Source of the DNA: Pristiophorus japonicus
Lineage: Eukaryota
NCBI RefSeq assembly: GCF_044704955.1
Contig: NC_091992.1
Location: forward strand, 63,674,001 to 63,738,000
Direction: 5' to 3'
Length of the DNA stretch: 64,000 nt
The notes beneath the pieces were generated by a model. The model did no database searches. It saw nothing but the letters and a program-made list of their open reading frames with translations, and was not told the DNA's origin. The position numbers were made by a program, and so were the translations under genes. Below, piece after piece: positions 6,153 to 26,458 of the stretch (position 1 is the stretch's first letter; the number at the start of each line of letters is the position of its first letter).

Positions 6153-9100
6153 AGGAAGATGCCGAGGGGGTAAGTGATTGGTGATTGGTGAGTAGTTTTT
6201 CTTTTTTCTCTTCTATATCAGTGAGTAACTTTTAACATTGTTGTTGCCAATTTAAGTGTATCTAAGGGTTAAGTCATGGCAGGAGAGCTCGGACACGTGT
6301 TATGTTCCTCCTGTACTATGTGGGAAATCAGGTGTCCCTGACGACTACGTGTGCGGGAAGTGTATCCGCCTCCAGCTCCTGACGGACCACGTTGCGGAAT
6401 TGGAGTTGAAGGTCGATTCACTCTGGAGCATCCACGATGCTGAGAATGACATGAATAGCACGTTTAGTGAGGTGGCCACACCGCAGGTAAAGGGTACACA
6501 GCCAGATAGGGAATGGAAGACCAACAGGAAGAGCAGTGCAAGGAAGGTAGTGCAGGGATCCTCTGCTGTCATCCCCCTGCCAAACAGATACACCGCTTTG
6601 AGTGCTGTTGAGGGGGATGACTCATCAGGGGGGAGCAGCAGCAGCCAAGTTCATGGCACCGTGGCTGGCTCTGCTGCACTGGAGGGCAGGAAAAAGAGTG
6701 GCAGAGCGATAGTGATAGGGGATTCAATTGTAAGGGGAATAGACAGGCGTTTCTGCGGCCGCAACCGAGACTCCAGGATGGTATGTTGCCTCCCTGGTGC
6801 AAGGGTCAAGGATGTCTCGGAGTGGGTGCAGGACATTCTGAAAAGGGAGGGTGAATAGCCAGTTGTCGTGGTGCACATTGGTACCAACAATATAGGTAGA
6901 AAACGGGATGAGGTCCTACGAGATGAATTTAAGGAGCTAGGAGCTAAATTAAAAAGTAGGACCTCAAAAGTAGTAATCTCAGGATTGCTACCAGTGCCAC
7001 GTGCTAGTCAGAGTAGGAATCGCAGGATAGCTCAGATGAATACGTGGTTTGAGCAGCAGGGAGGGATTCAAATTCCTGGGGTATTGGAACTGGTTCTGGG
7101 GGAGGTGGGACCTGTACAAACTGGACGGGCTGCACCTAGGCAGGACTGGAATCAATGTCCTAGGAGGAGTATTTGCTAATGCTGTTGGGGAGGAGTTAAA
7201 CTAATATGGCAGGGGGATGGGAACCAATGCAGGGAGACAGAGGGAAACAAAATGGAGACAGAAGCAAAAGACAGAAAGGAAATGAGTAAAAGTGTAGGAC
7301 AGAGAAACCCAAGGCAAAAAACAAAAAGGGCCACTTTGCAGAAACAGGGTCTAAGTGTGTTAAAAAGGCGACTGAAGGCTCTGTGCCTCAATGCGAGGAG
7401 TATTCAGAATAAGGTGGACGAATTAACTGTGCAGATAACAGTTAACGAATACGATGTGGTTGGCATCACGGAGACATGGCTCCAGGGTGACCAAGGCTGG
7501 GAACTCAACATCCAAGGGTATTCAACATTTAGGAAGGATAGACGGAAAGGAAAAGGAGGCGGGGCGGCATTGCTGGTGAAAGAGGAAATTAATGCAATTG
7601 TAAGGAGGGACATTAGCCTGGATAATGTGGAATCGGTCTGGGTGGAGCTACGGAATACCAAGGGGCAGAAAATGCAAGTGGGAGTTGTGTACAGTCCTCC
7701 AAACAGTAGTAGTGATGTTGGGGAGGGCATCAGACAGGAAATTAGGGGTGCATGCAATAAAGGTGCAGCAGTTATATTGGGTGTCTTTAATATGCATATA
7801 GATTGGGCTAATCAAACTGGAAGCAATACGGTGGAGGAGGATTTCCTGGAGTGCATGAGGGATGGTTTTCTAGACCAATATGTCGAGGAACCGACGAGGA
7901 GGGAGGCCATCTTAGACTGGGTGTTGTGTAATGAGAGAGGATTAATTAGCAATCTCGTTGTGCGAGGCCCCTTGGGGAAGAGTGACCATAATATGGTGGA
8001 ATTCTACATTAGGATGGAGAATGAAACGGTTAATTCAGAGACCATGGTCCAGAACTTAAAGAAGGGTAACTTTGAAGGTATGAGGCTTGAATTGGCTAGG
8101 ATAGATTGGCGAATGATACTTAAGGGGTTGACAGTGGATGGGCAATGGCAGACATTTAGAGACTGCATGGATGAACTACAACAATCGTACATCCCTGTCT
8201 GGCGTAAAAATAAAAAAGGGATGGTGGCTCAACCGTGGCTATCAAGGGAAATCAGGGATAGTATTGAAGCCAAGGAAGTGGCATACAAATTGGCCAGAAA
8301 TAGCAGCAAACCCGGGGACTGGGAGAAATTTAGAACTCAGCAGAGGAGGACAAAGGGTTTGATTAGGGCAGGGAAAATGGAGTACGAGAGGAAGTTTGCA
8401 GGGAACTTTAAAATGGACTGCAAAAGCTTCTATAGATATGTAAAGAGAAAAAGGTTAGTAAAGACAAACGTAGGTCCCCTGCAGTCAGAATCAGGGGAAG
8501 TCATAACTGGGAACAAAGACATGGCAGACCAATTGAACAAGTACTTTGGTTCGGTATTCACTAAGGAGGACACAAACAACCTTCCGGATATAAAAGGGGT
8601 CAGAGGGTCTAGTAAGAAGGCGGAACTGAGGGAAATCCTTATTAGTTGGGAAATTGTGTTGGGGAAATTGATGGGATTGAAGGCCGATAAATCCCCAGGG
8701 CCTGATGGACTGCATCCCAGGGTACTTAAGGAGGTGGCCTTGGAAATAGCGGATGCATTGACAGTCATTTTCCAACATTTCATAGACTCTGAATCAGTTC
8801 CTATGGAGTGGAGGGTAGCCTTTTGTAACCTCACTTTTTAAAAAAGGAGGGAGAGAGAAAACAGGGAATTAAAGACCGGTCAGCCTGACATCGGTAGTGG
8901 GTAAGATGATGGAATCAGTTATTAAGGATATCATAGCAGCGCATTTGGAAAGAGGTGACATGATAGGTCCAAGTCAGCATGGATTTGTGAAAGCGAAATC
9001 ATGCTTGACAAATCTTCTGGAATTTTTTGAGGATGTTTCCAGTAGAGTGGACAAGGGAGAACCAGTTGATGTGGTGTATTTGGACTTCCAGAAGGCTTTC

Positions 9101-10249
9101 GACAAGGTCCCACACAAGAGATTAGTGTGCAAAGTTAAAGCACATGTGATTGGGGGTAGTGTGCTGATGTGGATTGAGAACTGGTTGGCAGACAGGAAGC
9201 AAAGAGTAGGAGTAAATGGGTACTTTTCAGAATGGCAGGCAGTGACTAGTGGGGTACCGCAAGGTTCTGTGCTGGGGCCCCAGCTGTTTATATTGTACAT
9301 TAATGATTTAGACGAGGGGATTAAATGTAGTATATCCAAATTTGCGGATGACACTAAGTTGGGTGGCAGTGTGAGCTGCGAGGAGGATGCTATGAGGCTG
9401 CAGAGTGACTTGGATAGGTTAGGTGAGTGGGGAAATGCACGGCAGATGAAGTATAATGTGGATAAAACAGAGACAGACTATTATCTGAATGGTGACAGAT
9501 AAGGAAAAGTGGAGGTGCAATGAGACCTGGGTGTCATGGTACATCAGCCATTGAAGGTTGGCATGCAGGTGCAGCAGGCTGTTAAGAAAGCAAATGGCAT
9601 GTTGGCCTTCATAGCGAGGGGATTTGAGTACAGGGGCAGGGAGGTGTTACTACAGTTGTACAGGGCCTTGGTGAGGCCACACCTGGAGTATTGTGTACAG
9701 TTTTGGTCTCCTAACTTGAGGAAGGACGTTCTTGCTATTGAGGGAGTGCAGCGAAGGTTCACCGACTGATTCCCGGGATGGCGGGACTGACATATCAAGA
9801 AAGACTGGATCAACTGGGCTTGTATTCACTGGTGTTCAGAAGAATGAGAGGGGATCTCATAGAAACGTTTAAAATTCTGACGGGGTTAGACAGGTTAGAT
9901 GCAGGAAGAATGTTCCCAATGTTGGGGAAGTCCAGAACCAGGGGTCACAGTCTAAGGATAAGAGGTAAGCCATTTAGGACCGAGATGAGGAGAAACTTCT
10001 TCACCCAGAGAGTGGTGAACCTGTGGAATTCTCTACCACAGAAAGTTGTTGAGGCCAATTCACTAAATATATTCAAAAAGGAATTAGATGTACTCCTTAC
10101 TACTAGGGGGATCAAGGGGTATGGTGAGAAAGCAGGAATGGGGTACTGAAGTTGCATGTTCAACCATGAACTCATTGAATGGCGGTGCAGGCTCGAAGGG
10201 CCAAATGGCCTACTCCTGCACCTATTTTCCATGTTTCTATGTTTCTATG
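6153..10249 (+). mobile_element. near full-length CR1 LINE (ORF1 zinc finger plus SGNH esterase; ORF2 APE-RT), disrupted
   Basis: ORF1 CSSC..CGKC, IVIGDSIVRG, VHIGTN, DGLHL; ORF2 LNARS, GITETW, SDHN, YLDFQKAFDKV, QGSVLGP, FADD; (TTCTATGT) tail; frameshifts and stops present. Confidence 0.95.
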
Positions 10250-13743: not shown

Positions 13744-15947
13744 AGAATGAAACAGTTAATTCAGAGACCATGGTCCAGAACTTAAAGAAGGGTAACTTTG
13801 AAGGTATGAGGCGTGAATTGGCTAGGATAGATTGGCGAATGATACTTAAGGGGTTGACTGTGGATGGGCAATGGCAGACATTTAGAGACCGCATGGATGA
13901 ATTCTGTCTGGCGTAAAAATAAAAAGGGAAGGTGGCTCAACCGTGGCTATCTAGGGAAATCAGGGATAGTATTAAAGCCAAGGAAGTGGCATACAAATTG
14001 GCCAGAAATAGCAGCGAACCCGGGGACTGGGAGAAATTTAGAACTCAGCAGAGGAGGACAAAGGGTTTGATTAGGGCAGGGAAAATGGAGTACGAGAAGA
14101 AGGCGGATTGCAAAAGTTTCTATAGGTATGTAAAGAGAAAAAGGTTAGTAAAGACAAACGTAGGTCCCCTGCAGTCAGAATCAGGGGAAGTCATAATGGG
14201 GAACAAAGAAATGGCAGACCAATTGAACAAGTACTTTGGTTCGGTATTCACTAAGGAGGACACAAACAACCTTCCAGATATAAAAGGGGTCAGAGGGTCT
14301 AGTAAGGAGGAGGAACTGAGGGAAATCTTTATTAGTCGGGAAATTGTGTTGGGGAAATTGATGGGATTGATGGCCGATAAATCCCCAGGACCTGATGGAC
14401 TGGATCCCAGAGAACTTAAGGAGGTGGCCTTGGAAATAGCGGATGCATTGACAGTCATTTTCCAACATTCCATTGACTCTGGATCAGTTCCTATGGAGTG
14501 GAGGGTAGCCAATGTAACCCCACTTTTTAAAAAAGGAGGGAGAGAGAAAACAGGGAATTATAGACCGGTCAGCCTGACCTCAGTAGTCGGTAAAATGATG
14601 GAATCAATTATTAAGGATGTCATAGCAGCGCATTTGGAAAATGGTGACATGATAGGTCCAAGTCAGCATGGATTTGTGAAAGGGAAATCATGCTTGACAA
14701 ATCTTCTGGAATTTTTTGAGGATGTTTCCAGTAAAGTGGACAAAGGAGAACCAGTTGATGTGGTATATTTGGACTTTCAGAAGGCTTTCGACAAGGTCCC
14801 ACACAAGAGATTAATGTGCAAAGTTAAAGCACATGGGACTGGGGGTAGTGTGCTGATGTGGATTGAGAACTGGTTGTCAGACAGGAAGCAAAGAGTAGGA
14901 GTAAATGGGGACTTTTCAGAATGGCAGGCAGTGACTAGTGGGGTACCGCAAGGTTCTGTGCTGGGGCCCCAGCTGTTTACATTGTACATTAATGATTTAG
15001 ACGAGGGGATTAAATGTAGTATCTCCAAATTTGCGGATGACACTAAGTTGGGTGGCAATGTGAGCTGCGAGGAGGATGCTATGAGGCTGCAGAGTGACTT
15101 GAATAGGTTAGGTGAGTGGGCAAAAGAATGGCAGATGAAGTATAATGTGGATAAATGTGAGGTTATCCACTTCGGTGGTAAAAGCAGAGAGACAGACTAT
15201 TATCTGAATGGTGACAGATTAGGAAAAGGGAAGGTGCAACGAGACCTGGGTGTCATGGTACATCAGTCATTGAAGGTTGGCATGCAGGTACAGCAGGTGG
15301 TTAAGAAAGCAAATGGCATGTTGGCCTTCATAGCGAGCGGATTTGAGTACAGGGGCAGGGAGGTGTTGCTACAGTTGTACAGGGCCTTGGTGAGGCCACA
15401 CCTGGAGTATTGTGTACAGTTTTGGTCTCCTAACTTGAGGAAGGACATTCTTGCTATTGAGGGAGTGCAGCGAAGATTCACCAGACTGATTCCCGGGATG
15501 GTGGGACTGACCTATCAAGAAAGACTGGATCAACTGGGCTTGTATTCACTGGAGTTCAGAAGAATGAGAGGGGACCTCATAGAAACGTTTAAAATTCTGA
15601 CGGGGTTAGACAGGTTAGATGCAGGAAGAATGTTCCCAATGTTGGGGAAGTCCAGAACCAGGGGTCACAGTCTAAGGATAAGGGGTAAGCCATTTAGGAC
15701 CGAGATGAGGAGAAACCTCTTCACCCAGAGAGTGGTGAACCTGTGGAATTCTCTACCACAGAAAATAGTTGAGGCCAATTCACTAAATATATTCAAAAGT
15801 CCTTACTACTCGGGGGATCAAGGGGTATGGCGAGAAAGCAGGAAGGGGGCACTGAAGTTTCATGTTCAGCCATGAACTCATTGAATGGCGGTGCAGGCTA
15901 GAAGGGCTGAATGGCCTGCTCCTGCACATATTTTCTATGTTTCTATG
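13744..15947 (+). mobile_element. 5'-truncated young CR1 with open RT domain
   Basis: 647-aa ORF 13932..15875 with all RT motifs; nearly identical to 8017-10249. Confidence 0.95.
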
Positions 15948-16351
15948 TAACCAGTTCTCTATCCACATCAGTACTTAACCTCCAATACCATGTGCTTTGA
16001 TTTTGCACACCAATCTCTTGTGTGGGACCTTGTCAAAAGCCTTTTGAAAGTCCAAATACACCACATCCACTGGTTCTCCTTTGTCCACTCTGCTAGTTAC
16101 ATCCTCAAAAAACTCCAGAAGACTTGTCAAGCATGATGTCCCTTTCACAAACCCATGCTGACTTGGACCGATCTTGTTCCAACTGTCACAGGAGCATCCA
16201 GTCGTGCCCCGGTAACTGCCCCCAAAGGAAGTGGAGTATGGGAAATTGCACTCCACTTCCATTGAGGGGTGGTAAGGCCAATTCTGCGGCAGGAGCAGGA
16301 CTTCCACGCTGGGGGCTAAAATTCCCTACCCCAGAAGGTTACCGGCCCCAA

Positions 16352-19239: not shown

Positions 19240-19923
19240 AAGAACATAACATAAGAATTAGGAACAGGAGTAGGCCATCTAGCCCCTCGAGCCTGTTCTG
19301 CCATTCAACAAGATCATGGCTGATCTGGCCGTGGACTCAGCTCCACTTACCTGCCCGCTCCCCATAACCCTTTATTCCCTTATTGGTTAAAAATCTATTT
19401 ATTTGTGATTTAAATACATTCAATGAGCTAGCCTCAACTGCTTCCTTGGGCAGAGAATTCCACAGATTCACAACCCTCTGGGAGAAGAAATTCCTTCTCA
19501 ACTCGGTTTTAAATTGGCTCCCCCATATTTTGAGGCTGTGCCTCCTAGTTCTAGTCTCCCCGACCAGTGGAAACAACCTCTCTGCCTCTATCTTGTCTAT
19601 CCCTTTCATTATTTTAAATGTTTCTATAAGATCACCCCTCATCCTTCTGAATTCCAACGAGTAAAACCCAGACTACTCAATCTATCATAAGCGGAATCAG
19701 CCTAGTGAATCGTCTCTGTACCCCCTCCAAAGCTAGTATATCCTTCCTTAAGTAAGGTGACCAAAACTGCAGTACTCCAGGTGCGGCCTCACCAATATCC
19801 ATTGCAGCAGGACCTCCCTACTTTTGTACTCCATCCCTCTCGCAATGAAGGCCAACATTCCATTCGCCTTCCTGATTACCTGCTGCACCTGCAAACTAAC
19901 TTTTTGGGATTCATACACAAGGA
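19240..19923 (-). mobile_element. CR1 3' fragment, host of the Tx1 insertions
   Basis: ORFs 19337..19657 and 19748..19933 encode the CR1 ORF2 C-terminus; (AAGAACAT) tail at 19240. Confidence 0.9.
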
Positions 19924-19929
19924 GACAGG

Positions 19930-20012
19930 ACAATGATGGCCGATTGGTTAAGGTGTTTGGTTTAAAATCTGATGGGTTTATACCCGCATCGGTTCGAACC
20001 CCACTCCTGGTA
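19930..20012 (+). pseudogene. tRNA-Leu(TAA)-derived sequence
   Basis: 83 nt collinear with vertebrate tRNA-Leu-TAA (GATGGCCGAxTGGTTAAGG...TTAA...GGTTCGAACCCCACTCCTGGTA); acceptor and anticodon stems mismatched; no CCA. Confidence 0.85.
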
Positions 20013-20036
20013 ATTCCTTAATTAAACAGAGATTTT

Positions 20037-21651
20037 ACAGAAGAAGCTGGTGGACTTCTTCTGGAACAACAGGAAGCACTGGGTCTCTGCCGCGGTCTTG
20101 AGTCTCCCGCTTGGGGAGGGCGGTCAGTCGTTGGTGTGCGTCAGCGCCCAGCTCGCGACTTTCCGTCTTCAGACCCTGCAGAGATACCTTTACGTTGAAC
20201 CCCCTCCTAGGTGGTGTGCTCTGGCGATGTATTTCTTCCGCCAGCAGCACGGCCTCAACTACGACACACAGCTCCTGTTTGTGAGTGTGGGGGGCGCCAG
20301 GACCGCCCTCCGGGAGCTGCCTGTCTTTTACAAGGAACTCATCAGGGTCTGGAACAAAGTCTCCACCAAGCGCAGCTCTCCACCGGCTGGAGTGGCGGCC
20401 GTCCTGCAGGAGCCGCTGCTCGGGGATCCGTACCTCCATGACCGAGGTTTTGGGTGGCGGTCGGACGAGAGGGCTGTGGCTGGTGAGGTGACCAGGGTCA
20501 GGGACCTGCTCGATGGTGGAGGAGCGGGCTGGATGGCGCCAGACACGCTGGTGCGGCGCCTAAATTCTGCCAATGTCCGCCACACGGCCGATGCCATCGA
20601 GTCTCTAAAAAGAGCTCTGGGCCCCGACTCCGTTAGGTGCATCGAGGAGGCTCAAGCACGTGGGGAGATCCCGTTCGAACTGACCCCCGTCTGGACGGAA
20701 TTCCTCATCAGCGCCAAACCCCGAAACCTCCCTCGGGGGCCGGCGCCTCACAACTTGAGCCGCCTCGGGGAAATCCCCTCCGTGCCTTTCAGTTCCGCGC
20801 GGAGGGGTTTCCTGTATGGGCTGCTCCTGCACACTCTCAACATTGCCATTCTCGCCTGCCGTCCGGACACGCCATGGCGTACCATCTTGCCGTCTGGAGG
20901 AGGCGGGGGTCCCCGATGGAGGGCACTCTACGCAGGGGTCCTCCCACTATTTGTCGGGGACTTGGCCTGGAGGGTGGTGCACGGAGCAGTGCCGTGCAAT
21001 AAATTTTTAAGCCGGTTCACGGGCTCCCAGGCCGCCTGCAATTTCTGTGGTCTGGAAGAGTCCGTGTTCCATGTTTTTATTGAGTGCACGAGGTTGCAGC
21101 CCCTGTTCTGTTATTTAAAGGGGCTGCTCCTGAAATTCTGGCTGCACTTCAGTCCCACACTCCTGATCTTCGGGCACCCTGTGCGGAGGGGAGCGGGTAG
21201 GTCCGAGGGCCTCCTTGTGGGACTGCTCCTGGGCACGGCCAAGGGGGCCATCAGCCAGTCCAGGCAGCGGGCGGTCGAGGGGGTCGTTCAGTCGGACTGC
21301 CTGCCTCTCTTCCGCGCATACATCCGGTCCAGGGTGTCCTTGGAGATGGAGCACGCGGTGTCCACCGGTACGCTCGCGGCCTTCCGCGAGAGGTGGGCAC
21401 CCGAGGGACTGGAGTGCATCATCACGCCCGGCAACCAAATTTTAATTTGATTTTATGTTTTTAAGTTAATTTGTTTTAAATGCCGGTGCTTTTAGTGTCC
21501 CCCTCCCCTTTTATAGGGGGCACTTGGAAAAAAATTTGATTCTGTGCCCAAAAAAACCCCCAAAAAATAACAAAAAGGGCCTTGTAAATGTTGGTGTTTC
21601 CCCCAGATCGGGGGGCACGGTTTAATGTTTTTTGTTTACTCCTAAACGAGT
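20037..21651 (+). mobile_element. 5'-truncated Tx1-clade non-LTR retrotransposon (ORF2 C-terminus and 3'UTR)
   Basis: open 466-aa ORF with DFFW..HWV..VL.LP..EGGQ and CNFC..EESVFHVFIEC zinc finger; 14-bp TSD ttcatacacaagga at 19910-19923 and 21652-21665. Confidence 0.9.
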
Positions 21652-21667
21652 TTCATACACAAGGACC

Positions 21668-24397
21668 AATGGTGGGGCTTTGGAGGCGTGGCCTAATCAG
21701 TTGGAGCCTGGCTGCTGAGAGAGAAGGAGCTACCTGCTTTGCTCCTGTCTAGAGGGCCTGGAGTGAGCCCTGAGAACAGCCCAGGAATAGGAGGAGAGGG
21801 CCAGGCTTACTACAACTCAACCTCTGGAGGGAGAGGTGGAGAGCTGAACAATTATCATTTATTACAACTACAGAGAGTTGGAGAGAGGGGGAAAGAACAA
21901 CCTGAGGAAACACCATCCAGTGTGGAAGGAGGGAGAGTCATTTCCACATCTTCGACAGGTGGGTGTGTTTTGGTGCATTCCCCAATAGACTTTGTGGTAT
22001 CGGTGGGGGGAGGAAAGAAAATAACTTGAGGGCCGGAACATCGCGGGGGTTGTGTGTGTGTGGAAGTGTGTGTGGGGGTCTTGCTTACAGCTAGGCCCCA
22101 CACACCACTGAAGCGCCCCTCCCCCATTGCCTAGCCTGGGATAGCTGGAGCTACCTGGATGAAGAATCTTTAATCACCCTTTAAACATCGTTGGGAGTGT
22201 GTGCCTGGGTGGCTCCAGCTACCCCAGGTGAAGATATCTTCTCCCCCCATCCGAAGACCACTCTACAAAGACTGTGTTTTTTTGCCATCTGGGGAGTGCA
22301 CCCCAAGAAACACCCACCCACCGTTGTGAGGGGAGACCTGCCCTCGCAGCTTCCCTCCTTCCCAACCCCTCACTCTATCTCTCTCTCTCTGTCTCTCCCC
22401 TCTCTCTCTGAGAGCCCTTTGCTCCTAATTTCTTTAAAAAAAAAGAAAACAATCAAGACAACTGAGCAGAGGGAGCAAGGCCCCTCCCCAATTGCCAACT
22501 AGGGGAGAAGTGTGCCTCTTTCAGAGCTCCTCTGCTCAAACATTCAAACGAGGCCAATTTAAGACCATTAAGGCCTGTGACTTTGGGGTGGGTGTAGCCC
22601 TTAAAGGGACCCCGTGATGGCGACCCCATCCACGCCGGTGGCAGGGCCAGCTAAGACTTATGCGCAGGCGGCATCCACATCCACGGCGCCTCCTGCGCCT
22701 CCTGCTGCCCTGCCACCATTCAGACTAATTACCAAGAAACACGGGGTCAAGAGCTACACTCACCCCACAATGAGCATTGAGGAGTGCGTGCGGGCGATGG
22801 CTGGGGTAGTCGGCCCGTCGGCCATTGTCGCAGCCTCCAAGATGTCTGGGAAGGCTGTATTCTTCCTGGGGTCGGAGCGAGCGGTGTCCCTGGCCATTGA
22901 AAAGGGGCTCACGGTGGGCGGGGCGTTCCTGCCGGTGGACCCTCTCAAGGCCACCGCGCAGAAGGTCATTCTATCGAACGTCCCGCCCTTTGTTCCCGCT
23001 GAGCTCCTCCTCCCTCACCTACACCAACTGGGAGAGGTAAGGTCGGGGATCAACCCCATACCGCTCGGCCTCAGGGAGAACAGCCTGCACCATGTGTTCT
23101 CCTTCCGCCGCCAGCTCTTTGTCGGGCTGGCGCGGGAGGAGACAACAGAGGGCAATTTTAATGTGGTGCACGAGGGGACTGCCTACCGCGTCTGCTGGAC
23201 GTCGGACGGCGTGCGGTGCCATGCCTGCAGGGAGGTGGGGCACGTTCGCAAGCCAAACCACCAAAGGCGGCCAAGGCTGGCGCTGCTGCCACCCCTCCCC
23301 CTAGTTGCGTCCGCGTGCCGGGAGCCGTAGGTGCGCGGGCATCGTCGGAGGCCTTTGTTTTCACGGCATCCGGCGGGGGGGAGGGAGAGCGTCTGACCGG
23401 AAAGAAGGCGCGGAAGAAGACGATCCATCTAGAGGCGGGTCCCCTCGGTGCGCCAGACAATCTGTTTACCGCGCTCGGCCCAACCCCGTCACCGGCGAGC
23501 GCGGGGTGCCCTGAGCCCGTGCCCGAGCCCTTGACCAATATCGCAGAGGGGCTCGGGCGCGGGCAAGAAAAGAAAAAGGGGTGGGTGGAGCGGGAGGCCT
23601 CGGCAGACATGGAGGTCTCCCTGCCTCCGTGCACCCCCAGGAACAAAAGGAGGCGCCGCTCCAATGAGGCGGAGGGGGAACAACATCCCTCCGCGGAGGA
23701 GTCGGTGCCCGCCGCGTGTCCCGCGTCCCCCACCTGCGCCCCCAAATTGCGCTGTAGGCGCGAGGAATCTGTCCCCGGGGAGGGTGAGACAGTCGAGGCT
23801 GTCCAGCCTCTGCCCCCCGGGGATGGCGTGGAAGATCTGCCTGTCATGGGGGGTGTGGGGCAGGCGGAGGAATGCATTGCCGCCGGGCCGAGCGTCCCGG
23901 GGACTGAGGCGGGCGGGGCCGAAAAGCCCGAACCTGAGCACGCCCAGCTATTAACCAACTTCCCCTGGGAGTCGCTTGACCCGGCAGAAACCGAAATTAT
24001 GAATAATTTTAAAGATTCTGTACACGCTGGGCCAGGGGGTGGCGGCGGGGAGGGGGAAGAACAACAACCCTCGCCCCCTACTTTGGAGCTGGGGTACTTG
24101 GTGGACCTGGAACATTACTTTGACCAGGTCTCTCCGTGTTCCCCGGTTCCTGGGCCGGAGGAGGAACCCCTTCTGCTGTCGCTTCCCGACCCAGCACCAA
24201 TTTTAAAAGAGCGCAGTGGGGACTCCTCTGCCGACGATCCTGGGGGTGGGATTGGGGCAGAGCCAGGGCCAGATGGAGCGGCCGGGCCGTTTGCCGTACA
24301 TCGTGCGGTCGACAGGCCGGCTGCTGGCGGCGACCTCCCGGAGGAGGACGGGGACTCGGTGGAGGACGCGGGTGAAGATCTCGAGTCCATCGCCAGT
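21668..24397 (+). mobile_element. second Tx1-clade element: 5'UTR and ORF1 (ATG 22617), 3' part missing
   Basis: KTYAQAA, KHGVK, SIEECVRAMAGVVGPSAIVAASKM, KVILSNVPPF, SFRRQ, zinc knuckle CHACREVGH (frameshifted) and acidic/Pro-rich tail typical of Tx1 ORF1. Confidence 0.88.
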
Positions 24398-26458
24398 GCT
24401 GCGTTTTACAATGCCCTACGCGGTGTCTGAGGTTTTCGTTGTTTTGCAAGTTATTTTTTTACGTTTTCGTGTTTTTTCCAAAGTTTCTCATGTTGCCTAT
24501 GGGTTATGCTGCATTTTACAATGATCTACGCTGTTTGAGTTTTTCGTTGTTTTTTGAGTTATTTTTTTTCTTTTTGGAGTTTTTCGAAGTTTCTAATGGT
24601 GCATATGGGTGGTGCTGCGTTTTACAATGACCGGCGCTGTTTCTGCGGTTTTCGTTGTTTTTCGAGTTATTTTTCTTTTTTCAGTTTTTGGATGCTTCTC
24701 ATGGTGCATATTGGTGTGCTGCATTTCAAACGGCCCTACGCTTTTTCTGATGTTTTTGTTGTTTTTCGAGTTATCTTTTTACTTTTGAGTTTTTAAAAGT
24801 TTCTCATGGTGTATATGGGTTGTGCTGCGTTTCACACTGCCCTACACTGTTTGAGGTTTTCGTTGTTTTGCGAGTTATTTCAAAACCTTTCTGTTGTTTT
24901 TCGCAGTTTCTCTTGGTGCATATGGATTCTGCGGAGTTTTGCAACGAGGTTGTTTGAGGATTTCATTGTTTTCTGTTATTTTTTTAGTTTATTTGTGTCT
25001 TTTGAAGTATCTCATGGTGTATATGGGTTCTGCTGCGTTTTACACTGCACTATGCTGTATCTGAGGTTTTCGTTGTTTTTCGAGTTTTTTAAAAACGTTT
25101 TTGAGTTTTTCGAGCTTTGTCATGGTGCCTATGAGTTGTGCTGCATTATTACAATGCCCTACACTGTTTCTGATGTTTTCCGAGTTTTTAAATTATGTTT
25201 TTGAGTTTTTCGAACTTTGTCATGGTGCCTATGGGTTGTGCTGCATTTTACAATGCACTACGCTGTTTCTGATGTTTTCGTTGTTTTTCGAGTTTTTTTT
25301 TGAGTTTTTTGAAGTTTCTCATGGTGCCTATCGGTTGTGCTGCGTTTCACACCGCCCTACGCTATTTCTGAGGTTTTCGTTGTTTTGCGAGTTATTTCAA
25401 AACCTTTTTGTTTTTCGTAATTTCTCGGTGCATATGGATTCTGCTGAGTTTTACAATGAACTACACTGTTTCTGAGGTTTTCGTTTTTCGTTATTTTTTA
25501 ATTTTTAAAAAAGTTTTTGAAGTTTCTCATGGTGTATATGGGTTGTTCTGCGTTTCGAATTGCCCTTCGCTGTTTCTCAGGTTTTTGTTGTTTTTCCAGT
25601 TATTTTTTTTCGTTTTGAGTTTTTCAAAGTTTCTCATGTAGTATATGTGTTGTGTTGCATTTTACAATGCCCTACGCTGTTTCTGATGTTTTCGTTGTTT
25701 TTCGAGTTTTTAAATGTTTTTTTGAGTTTTTTGAAGTTTCTCATGGTGCCTATCGGTTGTGCTGCGTTTCACACTGCCCTACGCTATTTCTGAGGTTTTC
25801 GTTGTTTTGCGAGTTATTTCAAAACCTTTTTGTTTTTCGCAATTTCTCTTGGTGCATATGAATTCTGCTGAGTTTTACAATGATCTGCGCTGTTTCTGAG
25901 GTTTTCGTTGTTTTGCGAGTTATTTCAAAACCTTTCTGTTGTTTTTCGCAGTTTCTCTTGGTGCATATGGATTCTGCGGAGTTTTGCAACGAGGTTTGAG
26001 GTTTTCATTGTTTTCTGTTATTTTTTTTAGTTTTTTTGTGTCTTTTGAAGTATCTCATGGTGTATATGGATTCTGCTGCGTTTTACACTGCACTATGCTG
26101 TATCTGAGGTTTTCGTTGTTTTTCGAGTTTTTTTTAAACGTTTTTGAGTTTTTCGAACTTTGTCATGGTGCCTATGGGTTGTGCTGCATTATTACAATGC
26201 CCTACACTGTTTCTGATGTTTTCCGAGTTTTTAAATTATGTTTTTGAGTTTTTTGAACTTTGTCATGGTGCCTATGGGTTGTGCTGCATTTTACAATGCC
26301 CTACGCTGTTTCTGATGTTTTCGTTGTGTTTCGAGTTTTTAAATGTTTTTTTGAGTTTTTTGAAGTTTCTCATGGTGCCTATCGGTTGTGCTGCGTTTCA
26401 CACTGCCCTACGCTATTTCTGAGGTTTTCGTTGTTTTGCGAGTTATTTCAAAACCTTC
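24398..26458. repeat. satellite array, ~20 monomers of ~105 bp
   Basis: recurring gctgc(a/g)ttttacaatgccctacgctgtttctga..ttttcgttgtttttcgagt..ctcatggtg; very T-rich on plus strand; HOR ~1045 bp. Confidence 0.95.

Follow-up and report, generated by a model that had tools for sequence, protein, structure and literature searches.

The window

The window examined here is a 64,000-nucleotide stretch of the Pristiophorus japonicus genome (contig C16, positions 63674001-63738000 of the 5.9-Gb assembly, G000), and the subject of this study is an insertion within it, at 19910-21665, that joins a degenerate tRNA sequence to the 3′ part of a Tx1-type long interspersed nuclear element (LINE). The insertion lies in another LINE of CR1 type, whose open reading frame 2 (ORF2) is represented by its 3′ part, target site included, on the minus strand at 19241-19923 (91% identity over 716 nt to an empty-site copy). 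All parts of the insert are on the plus strand. A 14-nt direct repeat, perfect over its full length, forms the target-site duplication (TSD) at 19910-19923 and 21652-21665. The left TSD is followed by a 6-nt 5′ leader whose first base is a G (19924-19929), an 83-nt tRNA-Leu(TAA) body without CCA (19930-20012), a 20-nt 3′ trailer that matches tRNA-array genes (20013-20032) and TTTT (20033-20036), part of a terminator of RNA polymerase III (Pol III). Within the body, the A box has one change (19937-19947), the anticodon is TAA (19963-19965) and the B box is intact (19991-20001). The Tx1 part consists of a 5′-truncated ORF2 with an open frame, covering the C-terminal part with zf-RVT (20036-21450), and a 3′ UTR that ends in a predicted 4-bp terminal mini-hairpin (21451-21651). 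The initial annotation of the window had placed the TSD, leader, body, trailer and TTTT at these same positions. Its 1.6 kb of Tx1 ORF2 is indeed a Tx1 3′ part, though one made up of 1.41 kb of open ORF2 plus a 0.2-kb 3′ UTR.

That annotation was also right to read the repeat as a 14-bp TSD, but had missed that the TSD is the fixed target of a Tx1 family within the CR1-type LINE. A rare A variant of the target, found at 1 of 100 listed sites in each of two site lists, is present in both copies of the repeat, which marks the duplication as a genuine, local one. Beyond the right TSD comes the 5′ 2.7 kb of another Tx1, inserted at the re-created target, instead of the rest of the host LINE, which was not found in the window. 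A search for a separate TSD around the tRNA part alone found none. Contigs of four public sequencing runs end loosely at 19923 and 20036; they do not span the stretch and are uninformative either way, and among the public runs none of RNA was listed as containing it.

The junction between the two parts was located by a genome search with 20013-20400 and an alignment of 29 Tx1 siblings. All 39 sibling matches begin at 20036, with 97-99% identity, and the base at this position is a templated T in 29/29 siblings. Thus, three of the Ts derive from the tRNA and the fourth is shared with Tx1 as a 1-nt microhomology. The same junction was not found elsewhere in the genome; this single occurrence is the outcome that the initial annotation had tied to a chimera, many copies being the mark of a SINE-like family (short interspersed nuclear element, SINE). 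In form, the insert is a chimeric retrocopy: a small RNA and a truncated LINE in the same sense, within one TSD and with no internal TSD.

The Tx1 family and its target

Full-length copies of the family are 7.2 kb long and carry two ORFs. ORF1 has a CCHC knuckle, and ORF2 an AP-endonuclease, a reverse transcriptase (RT) and a C-terminal zinc motif (the zf-CCHC and zf-RVT matches fall below their curated cut-offs). ORF2 is 63% identical over 99% to the Xenopus Tx1 ORF2 (P0009), and by sequence the element classifies as a Tx1-clade non-LTR (long terminal repeat) retrotransposon. The same 14-nt target follows the 3′ end of 27/29 siblings, and exact 3′ Tx1/target junctions number 14,699 genome-wide, against 0 for a reversed-pattern control. 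Insertion by this family is sequence-specific and leaves a TSD. At its one 14-nt site in another LINE's ORF the family also forms head-to-tail arrays of 7.2-kb copies.

The target lies in an ORF of an abundant LINE. This ORF is of RT type, with 41-51% identity to bird RT ORFs and 60-66% to cartilaginous-fish ORFs; no match is named CR1, and the ESM Atlas returned RVT_1 only. This host LINE is putatively of CR1 type. No LINE-targeting Tx1 family was found in a literature search. An analogy had been drawn earlier with Dewa, Tx1 families that reportedly insert in tRNA-array spacers; it does not hold, as the target lies in a LINE. A 327-kb sample of tRNA array (contig C23) held no close Tx1 body and one distant 212-nt Tx1-like match.

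The 4-bp terminal hairpin motif occurs in 39/43 Tx1 3′ ends. Shuffled sequences fold as well as the last 112 nt of Tx1 do (z -0.18), so the hairpin is predicted from the conservation of the motif. Some inserts consist of only the last 11-12 nt of Tx1 within a full TSD (loci L173, L176 and L182, and upstream of L075 and L076), from which it follows that synthesis often stops there. Units starting 'agccatc' at L073, considered as a new SINE, are truncated Tx1 copies.

The tRNA part and its donor

By several measures the tRNA part is degenerate. It scores 22.3 bits in Rfam against a 29-bit cut-off, and ARAGORN at default settings called no tRNA in it. Five stem pairs of the body are broken, and its fold is no better than shuffles (z 0.38), compared with z -2.30 for an array gene. 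A genome search with 19924-20100 gave 1,329 candidates, of which 40 were scored; the 39 matches other than the window, all of them inspected, are 86-90% identical and cover the tRNA part only. Genes of tRNA arrays, mostly on C23, account for 38 of the 39, and ARAGORN calls tRNA-Leu(TAA) in 28/29 array loci scanned. The remaining match (L020), considered as a natural Val-Leu gene pair, is itself a chimera.

Homology to the array genes begins exactly at 19924, at a G that lies 6 bases before the mature 5′ end and after pyrimidines, and it ends within the T-run terminator, which in the donor-type genes is mostly 5-6 T long. We infer from the sequence context that this G (-6) is the Pol III start. 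With homology starting at the leader G and stopping in the terminator, the insert spans what a Pol III primary transcript would; it has the leader, the lack of CCA and the trailer reaching a T-run that are expected of a copied precursor tRNA.

The tRNA body carries 11 changes in 83 nt, while the Tx1 ORF departs from the majority of the 29 siblings at 29/1415 columns (2.0%). This difference (P ~1e-6) rejects post-insertion decay alone as the source of the tRNA divergence. Misreading of modified bases by the RT was rejected as well: 8/11 of the changes occur in sampled genes and other captures are near-exact. Most of the 11 changes presumably do not fall at known RT-blocking modified sites. Among 67 sampled genes, the nearest still differs from the window body at 10/83 positions; over leader and trailer, the closest genes differ at 1/30. 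A variant 29-mer of the window tRNA part has no second genome match within one mismatch. Two other chimeras are informative here. L065 and L070 match one degenerate C23 gene at 109/110 and 57/57 positions, the capture in L070 ending at a T5 run inside the variable arm, and degenerate array genes are therefore transcribed and copied faithfully. The window donor was likely an already degenerate array gene that is now lost, unscored or unassembled. The tRNA-pseudogene donor first proposed from the window is accordingly likely, given the excess of changes over the Tx1 part and the faithful capture of degenerate genes elsewhere, while the suggested search for a donor with the same leader and trailer returned matching array genes and not the donor itself.

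Very large tRNA gene arrays, with many degenerate copies, occupy C23 at 12-64 Mb and contig C1155. C23 also holds a degenerate tRNA-Leu-derived subfamily (L205, L207-L217) with anticodon GGT, an internal T5 run and ~17 copies within one mismatch. This subfamily was captured at least three times (L065, L070, L206).

A genome-wide class of chimeras

The window insert belongs to a larger class. Three search patterns, each consisting of the target, then 8-22 nt, then an A box, gave 15, 40 and 31 matches (86), all of which were fetched; reversed controls gave 0, so the class does not arise by chance. After four adjacent duplicates were dropped, 82 independent inserts remained, classed by eye as 72 pre-tRNA-first and 10 SINE-first. 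Twelve more chimeras lie outside the patterns (L020, L059, L167, L206, L244, L247, L249, L252, L254, L255, L257, L259), which gives ~95 in total, window included. An unselected list of 100 of 2,907 sites contained 52 insertions by eye; 3/52 were tRNA-headed, one of these being among the 86. By rough extrapolation, the true number of chimeras is probably 100-250, or ~1% of insertions.

These inserts share the features of the window copy. Leaders are 2-13 nt long (median 6) and begin with a purine in 68/72. A second TSD was found in 77/82 inserts and is identical to the first in 71/77 (69 in the cleaned run and two, L091 and L104, corrected by inspection); of the five others, four run past the fetched flank and one is eroded. 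Introns are kept in 15/15 Tyr heads and in four Arg copies, and no head carries CCA, with L074 ambiguous. In 55/81 inserts, T makes up at least three of the 6 nt that precede Tx1, against 17% inside heads (a crude null); the same holds for 12/18 of those with long Tx1 parts. The length of the Tx1 part, available for 81 inserts, is at most 20 nt in 49 (11-13 nt in 43), 21-100 nt in 9 and longer in 23; the tails of L095, L132 and L141 were mis-parsed in the cleaned run that gave these counts. The stop at 11-13 nt coincides with the predicted terminal hairpin, whose 5′ arm is incomplete in 40/47 tail-only chimeras. Identical heads join Tx1 at different points and thus represent independent captures.

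Other features of the class were noted in passing. In the adjacent duplicates (L099/L100, L113/L114, L120/L121, L142/L143), the first 90 nt are identical and the downstream Tx1 is 0.5-4% divergent, which suggests that they arise by unequal crossing-over or gene conversion in Tx1 arrays. Heads resembling tRNA-Gly(TCC) and tRNA-Cys with long trailers (~80-110 nt) occur repeatedly (L087, L088, L104, L139, L146; L066, L075). Captured 5S copies have A-rich insertions at one position (L090, L244), and oligo-A takes the place of the T-run at L084 and L116; both are possibly products of RT stutter or of adenylated decay intermediates. A full U1 snRNA match lies on the minus strand at L141:2500-2663, ~960 nt upstream of the chimera target.

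Chains of several small RNAs

Many inserts hold more than one small RNA. Two or more were recognized by eye in 18/82 inserts, and an Rfam scan of 20 chosen loci found two or more matches inside the insert in 7. At L244, one of the chimeras outside the patterns, the order within a single site is Gly, Asp, Tyr, 5S and Tx1 tail. Partners vary from insert to insert, and one and the same Tyr precursor can precede the tail, Arg, Ile, 5S or the Tx1 body. Its donors form a 1.42-kb tandem array of genes that end in T4 and are then followed by spacer, and no other match in the genome spans the Tyr-Arg junction. One Tyr leader variant has 21 occurrences, namely 2 array genes, 8 directly after the target, 6 after the 3′ end of another RNA at the target and 5 elsewhere. 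The Tyr precursor starts at the same G whether it adjoins the TSD, as at 8 loci, or another RNA, as at 6 loci with this target. Similarly, 5 inner junctions have 5S from +1 onward, and 3 others have it 5′-truncated or altered.

Most captured Tyr copies have a leader base seen in only two degenerate assembled array genes (L258, C1155:764278 and 768599), and their bodies match the majority array genes despite this rare base. This points either to turnover of the array after the captures or to an array variant missing from the assembly. Intron-containing Tyr precursors also occur at sites without the Tx1 target (L243, L250, L253, L256 and L242), one of them in an Asp-Val-Tyr chain. A different upstream flank is common to three of these off-target precursors, and a downstream motif to two; a second retroelement family may make the same chimeras.

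Probable template jumping and its alternatives

We consider the window locus to be, in all likelihood, a single insertion of the site-specific Tx1 that carries a copy of a whole pre-tRNA-Leu(TAA) at its 5′ end, probably acquired by template jumping of the RT. Serial end-to-end jumping of the Tx1 RT is likewise the probable origin of the class. In this mechanism, the ORF2 protein (ORF2p) would nick the target in the CR1-type LINE and prime on its own RNA. Synthesis of Tx1 would stop, at 11-13 nt in most inserts and at 1.6 kb in the window copy, and the RT would jump end to end onto the oligo-U 3′ end of a nearby Pol III transcript, sometimes onto several in series. It would then copy the pre-tRNA to its first base, and joining of the cDNA end to the upstream target strand would create the 14-bp TSD. 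The setting would be the germline nucleus, because the captured RNAs carry leaders and introns. The idea of a pre-tRNA/Tx1 chimera made at the RNA level within one TSD, already put forward from the window, is borne out by the leader-to-terminator span, the shared T and the ~95 comparable inserts. Of the two routes then left side by side, template switching is favoured by the multi-RNA chains, and RNA ligation is disfavoured by inner ends that lie at start nucleotides. An R2-type non-LTR RT copies several templates end to end in vitro (PMC8594491).

Ligation is the alternative that survives best, and it is unlikely. The pre-tRNA would first be ligated to cleaved Tx1 RNA, much as proposed for U6/L1 chimeras, and the chimeric RNA would then be retrotransposed. 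The inner RNAs of the chains begin at the start nucleotide, which normally bears a triphosphate and is an unsuitable end for RtcB, and pre-tRNA 3′ ends are, as a matter of general knowledge, 3′-OH. RtcB needs a cyclic-phosphate 3′ end and a 5′-OH, and 0/26 full-length products were obtained with a triphosphate (PMC6789731). U6 dominates both L1 chimeras (PMC4476161) and the extra-template junctions of R2 in human cells (PMC11371274), whereas a U6 motif, used without a positive control, found 0 U6-headed inserts here. The inner starts and the lack of U6 heads fit jumping better than RtcB ligation. Ligation would also have to happen up to four times to build a chain, and a tail of 11-13 nt would have to suffice for the recruitment of ORF2p. 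Nonetheless, U6/L1 chimeras show similar joins, blunt or 1-nt, behind a short run of T (PMC6789731). Nuclease cleavage within the 3′ hairpin could account for the hot spot at 11-13 nt, and for U6 fused to R2-inserted transgenes the choice between jumping and ligation was left open (PMC11371274).

Capture at the repair stage is less likely again. In this case, Tx1 cDNA synthesis would abort and the 5′ gap would then be filled with cDNA of abundant small RNAs by another RT or by a host polymerase, which would suit the shortened or eroded TSDs and 5′ microhomology at L020, L206, L059, L244, L249 and L255 and the unassigned filler at L109, L140 and L141. However, heads have the same orientation as Tx1 (the one to which the A-box patterns confine the search), they mostly span start to terminator, and the second TSD is identical in 71/77. 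Twin priming, in human, yields antisense halves (bioRxiv 2025.02.02.635956).

Two separate events, in which an older Tx1 received a tRNA retrocopy at its 5′ junction, or recombination at the DNA level, are very improbable. The tRNA part is more diverged from its own family than the Tx1 part, as such a history would allow, but it has no second TSD around it, homology is confined to the transcribed region and the structure recurs ~95 times. Retroposed read-through from a tRNA gene whose terminator already carried a truncated Tx1, the other origin offered by the initial annotation, is the least credible of all: captures in L020 and L065 do run past the first T-run, but Tx1 follows 0/38 donor-type array genes, the C23 sample contains a single distant Tx1-like match, the family inserts in its LINE target and the joining point in Tx1 varies widely among copies of the same head.

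A number of points weigh against template jumping or limit it. At the window itself, the junction (one jump with 1-nt microhomology) fits ligation equally well, and it is the sibling loci that distinguish the two. The exact donor gene was not found among the 40 of 1,329 candidates scored or in the 327 kb sampled of the 68-Mb C23 contig. Purine starts are also frequent in plain truncated copies (~36/49 non-C starts by eye). Some heads end without a T-run (e.g. L084, L116, L135), some captured 5S or tRNA pieces are truncated, and some 5′ junctions have a shortened or eroded TSD. Antisense captures fall outside the pattern searches, and the U6 count shares the limits of its motif. The 5′ triphosphate of inner RNAs is deduced from position, and a ligase for 5′-phosphate ends would escape the RtcB argument. 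Finally, jumping by this Tx1 RT is read from a genomic footprint, which keeps the mechanism a probable one.

Template jumping by this RT suggests a broader picture, to which we lean with less assurance. The Tx1 RT may routinely jump in series across nascent Pol III transcripts of the germline nucleus. The ~100-250 fixed-site inserts left behind would then form a fossil library of pre-tRNA starts, introns and termination points, including those of degenerate or lost genes, and a supply of ready tRNA-head/LINE-tail units for SINE birth.

SINE potential

The window insert contains 12 runs of at least four T, the first at the junction and 11 more after it, which would likely halt Pol III short of the Tx1 tail. 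The view of the window copy as a proto-SINE with an intact B box is therefore correct as to the B box and weak otherwise. The window copy so far falls short of a SINE, as it retains its terminator and shows no dispersed amplification. A SINE would show many dispersed copies with the same head and junction; this junction occurs once, and the class contains only the four adjacent tandem duplicates. Better proto-SINE candidates are the 29/47 tail-only chimeras in which a T4 run is absent.

Comparison with known systems

The structure is that of chimeric retrocopies, an established kind, here with whole pre-tRNAs, and chains of them, captured by a site-specific Tx1. Neither whole pre-tRNA/Tx1 chimeras nor chains of pre-tRNAs nor a Tx1 that targets a CR1 ORF were found described in the open literature, as distinct from subscription papers, Repbase and supplements. 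The supplements of PMC4494074 and bioRxiv 2025.02.02.635956 may bear on targets and on rare full-length cases.

The closest parallels are the U6/LINE chimeras of L1, L2 and RTE (PMC4476161, PMC6789731), which likewise join a full-length sense Pol III RNA with a short T-run to a 5′-truncated LINE within one TSD. Here, in contrast, a site-specific Tx1 captures many pre-tRNAs, 5S and SINE RNAs with no U6 found, often several RNAs in one chain (18/82), and with ends that are unsuited to RtcB. Human tRNA/LINE-1 chimeras (Law and Burns, bioRxiv 2025.02.02.635956) also insert tRNA sequence together with a LINE in one TSD, but those 21 loci are described as mostly half-length and antisense through twin priming, whereas the present inserts are whole sense precursors with leader, intron and trailer. 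tRNA-derived SINEs with LINE tails (PMC5786205, PMC3747384) combine a tRNA head and a LINE 3′ end and have been proposed to be born by a template switch; the window copy differs in its retained terminator and in the lack of dispersed amplification.

Within the Tx1 clade, crocodilian Tx1-Mar with SINEU (Kojima 2015, PMC4494074) resembles the present family in targeting other transposons and in tandem insertion. The crocodilian families also recurrently gained small RNAs at their 5′ ends, ascribed to template switching or jumping (PMC4494074). Their heads are the Pol II transcripts U1 and U2, amplified as families, and their targets Mariner, Harbinger or LTR elements (PMC4494074), whereas the present family targets a LINE ORF and has captured Pol III precursors independently each time. 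Xenopus laevis Tx1 (Tx1L) is similar in its ORF2 (63% identity), its two ORFs and its insertion into another transposon family (PMC4494074), which in that case is Tx1D rather than a 14-nt site in a CR1-type LINE.

Serial jumping has precedents as well. Tripartite chimeric retrogenes of Magnaporthe and mammals (PMC2104539) record double template jumps in one TSD at preferred sites, with 1 tripartite against 33 bipartite cases; here, chains make up ~1/5 of inserts and reach four small RNAs plus tail (L244). The Bombyx R2 RT (OTTR; PMC8594491) performs serial template jumping in vitro, though as an engineered enzyme of another clade, while the present record is a genomic footprint from which the mechanism is deduced.

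Jumping versus ligation is still debated for small-RNA/LINE chimeras, and chains of start-to-end precursors at a fixed target allow a direct test. The proposed tRNA-head/LINE-tail step of SINE birth is visible ~95 times as independent raw events, most of them dead ends as SINEs because the terminator is kept or the tail is too short. The inserts also record pre-tRNA ends in vivo and show that degenerate array genes are transcribed. A readily jumping, site-specific vertebrate RT could serve small-RNA sequencing, and RT jumping is relevant to unwanted RNA capture in retrotransposon-based gene insertion.

Other features of the window

The second, tandem Tx1 downstream of the insert (21666-24398, plus strand) comprises the 5′ end and ORF1 and is 85-87% identical to positions 1-2730 of five full-length copies. 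It is cut off by a 107-bp satellite of ~20 copies (24396-26457). LINE fragments of the host clade dominate the window (e.g. 8018-10242 and 13744-15948), several of them being 92-93% identical to each other.

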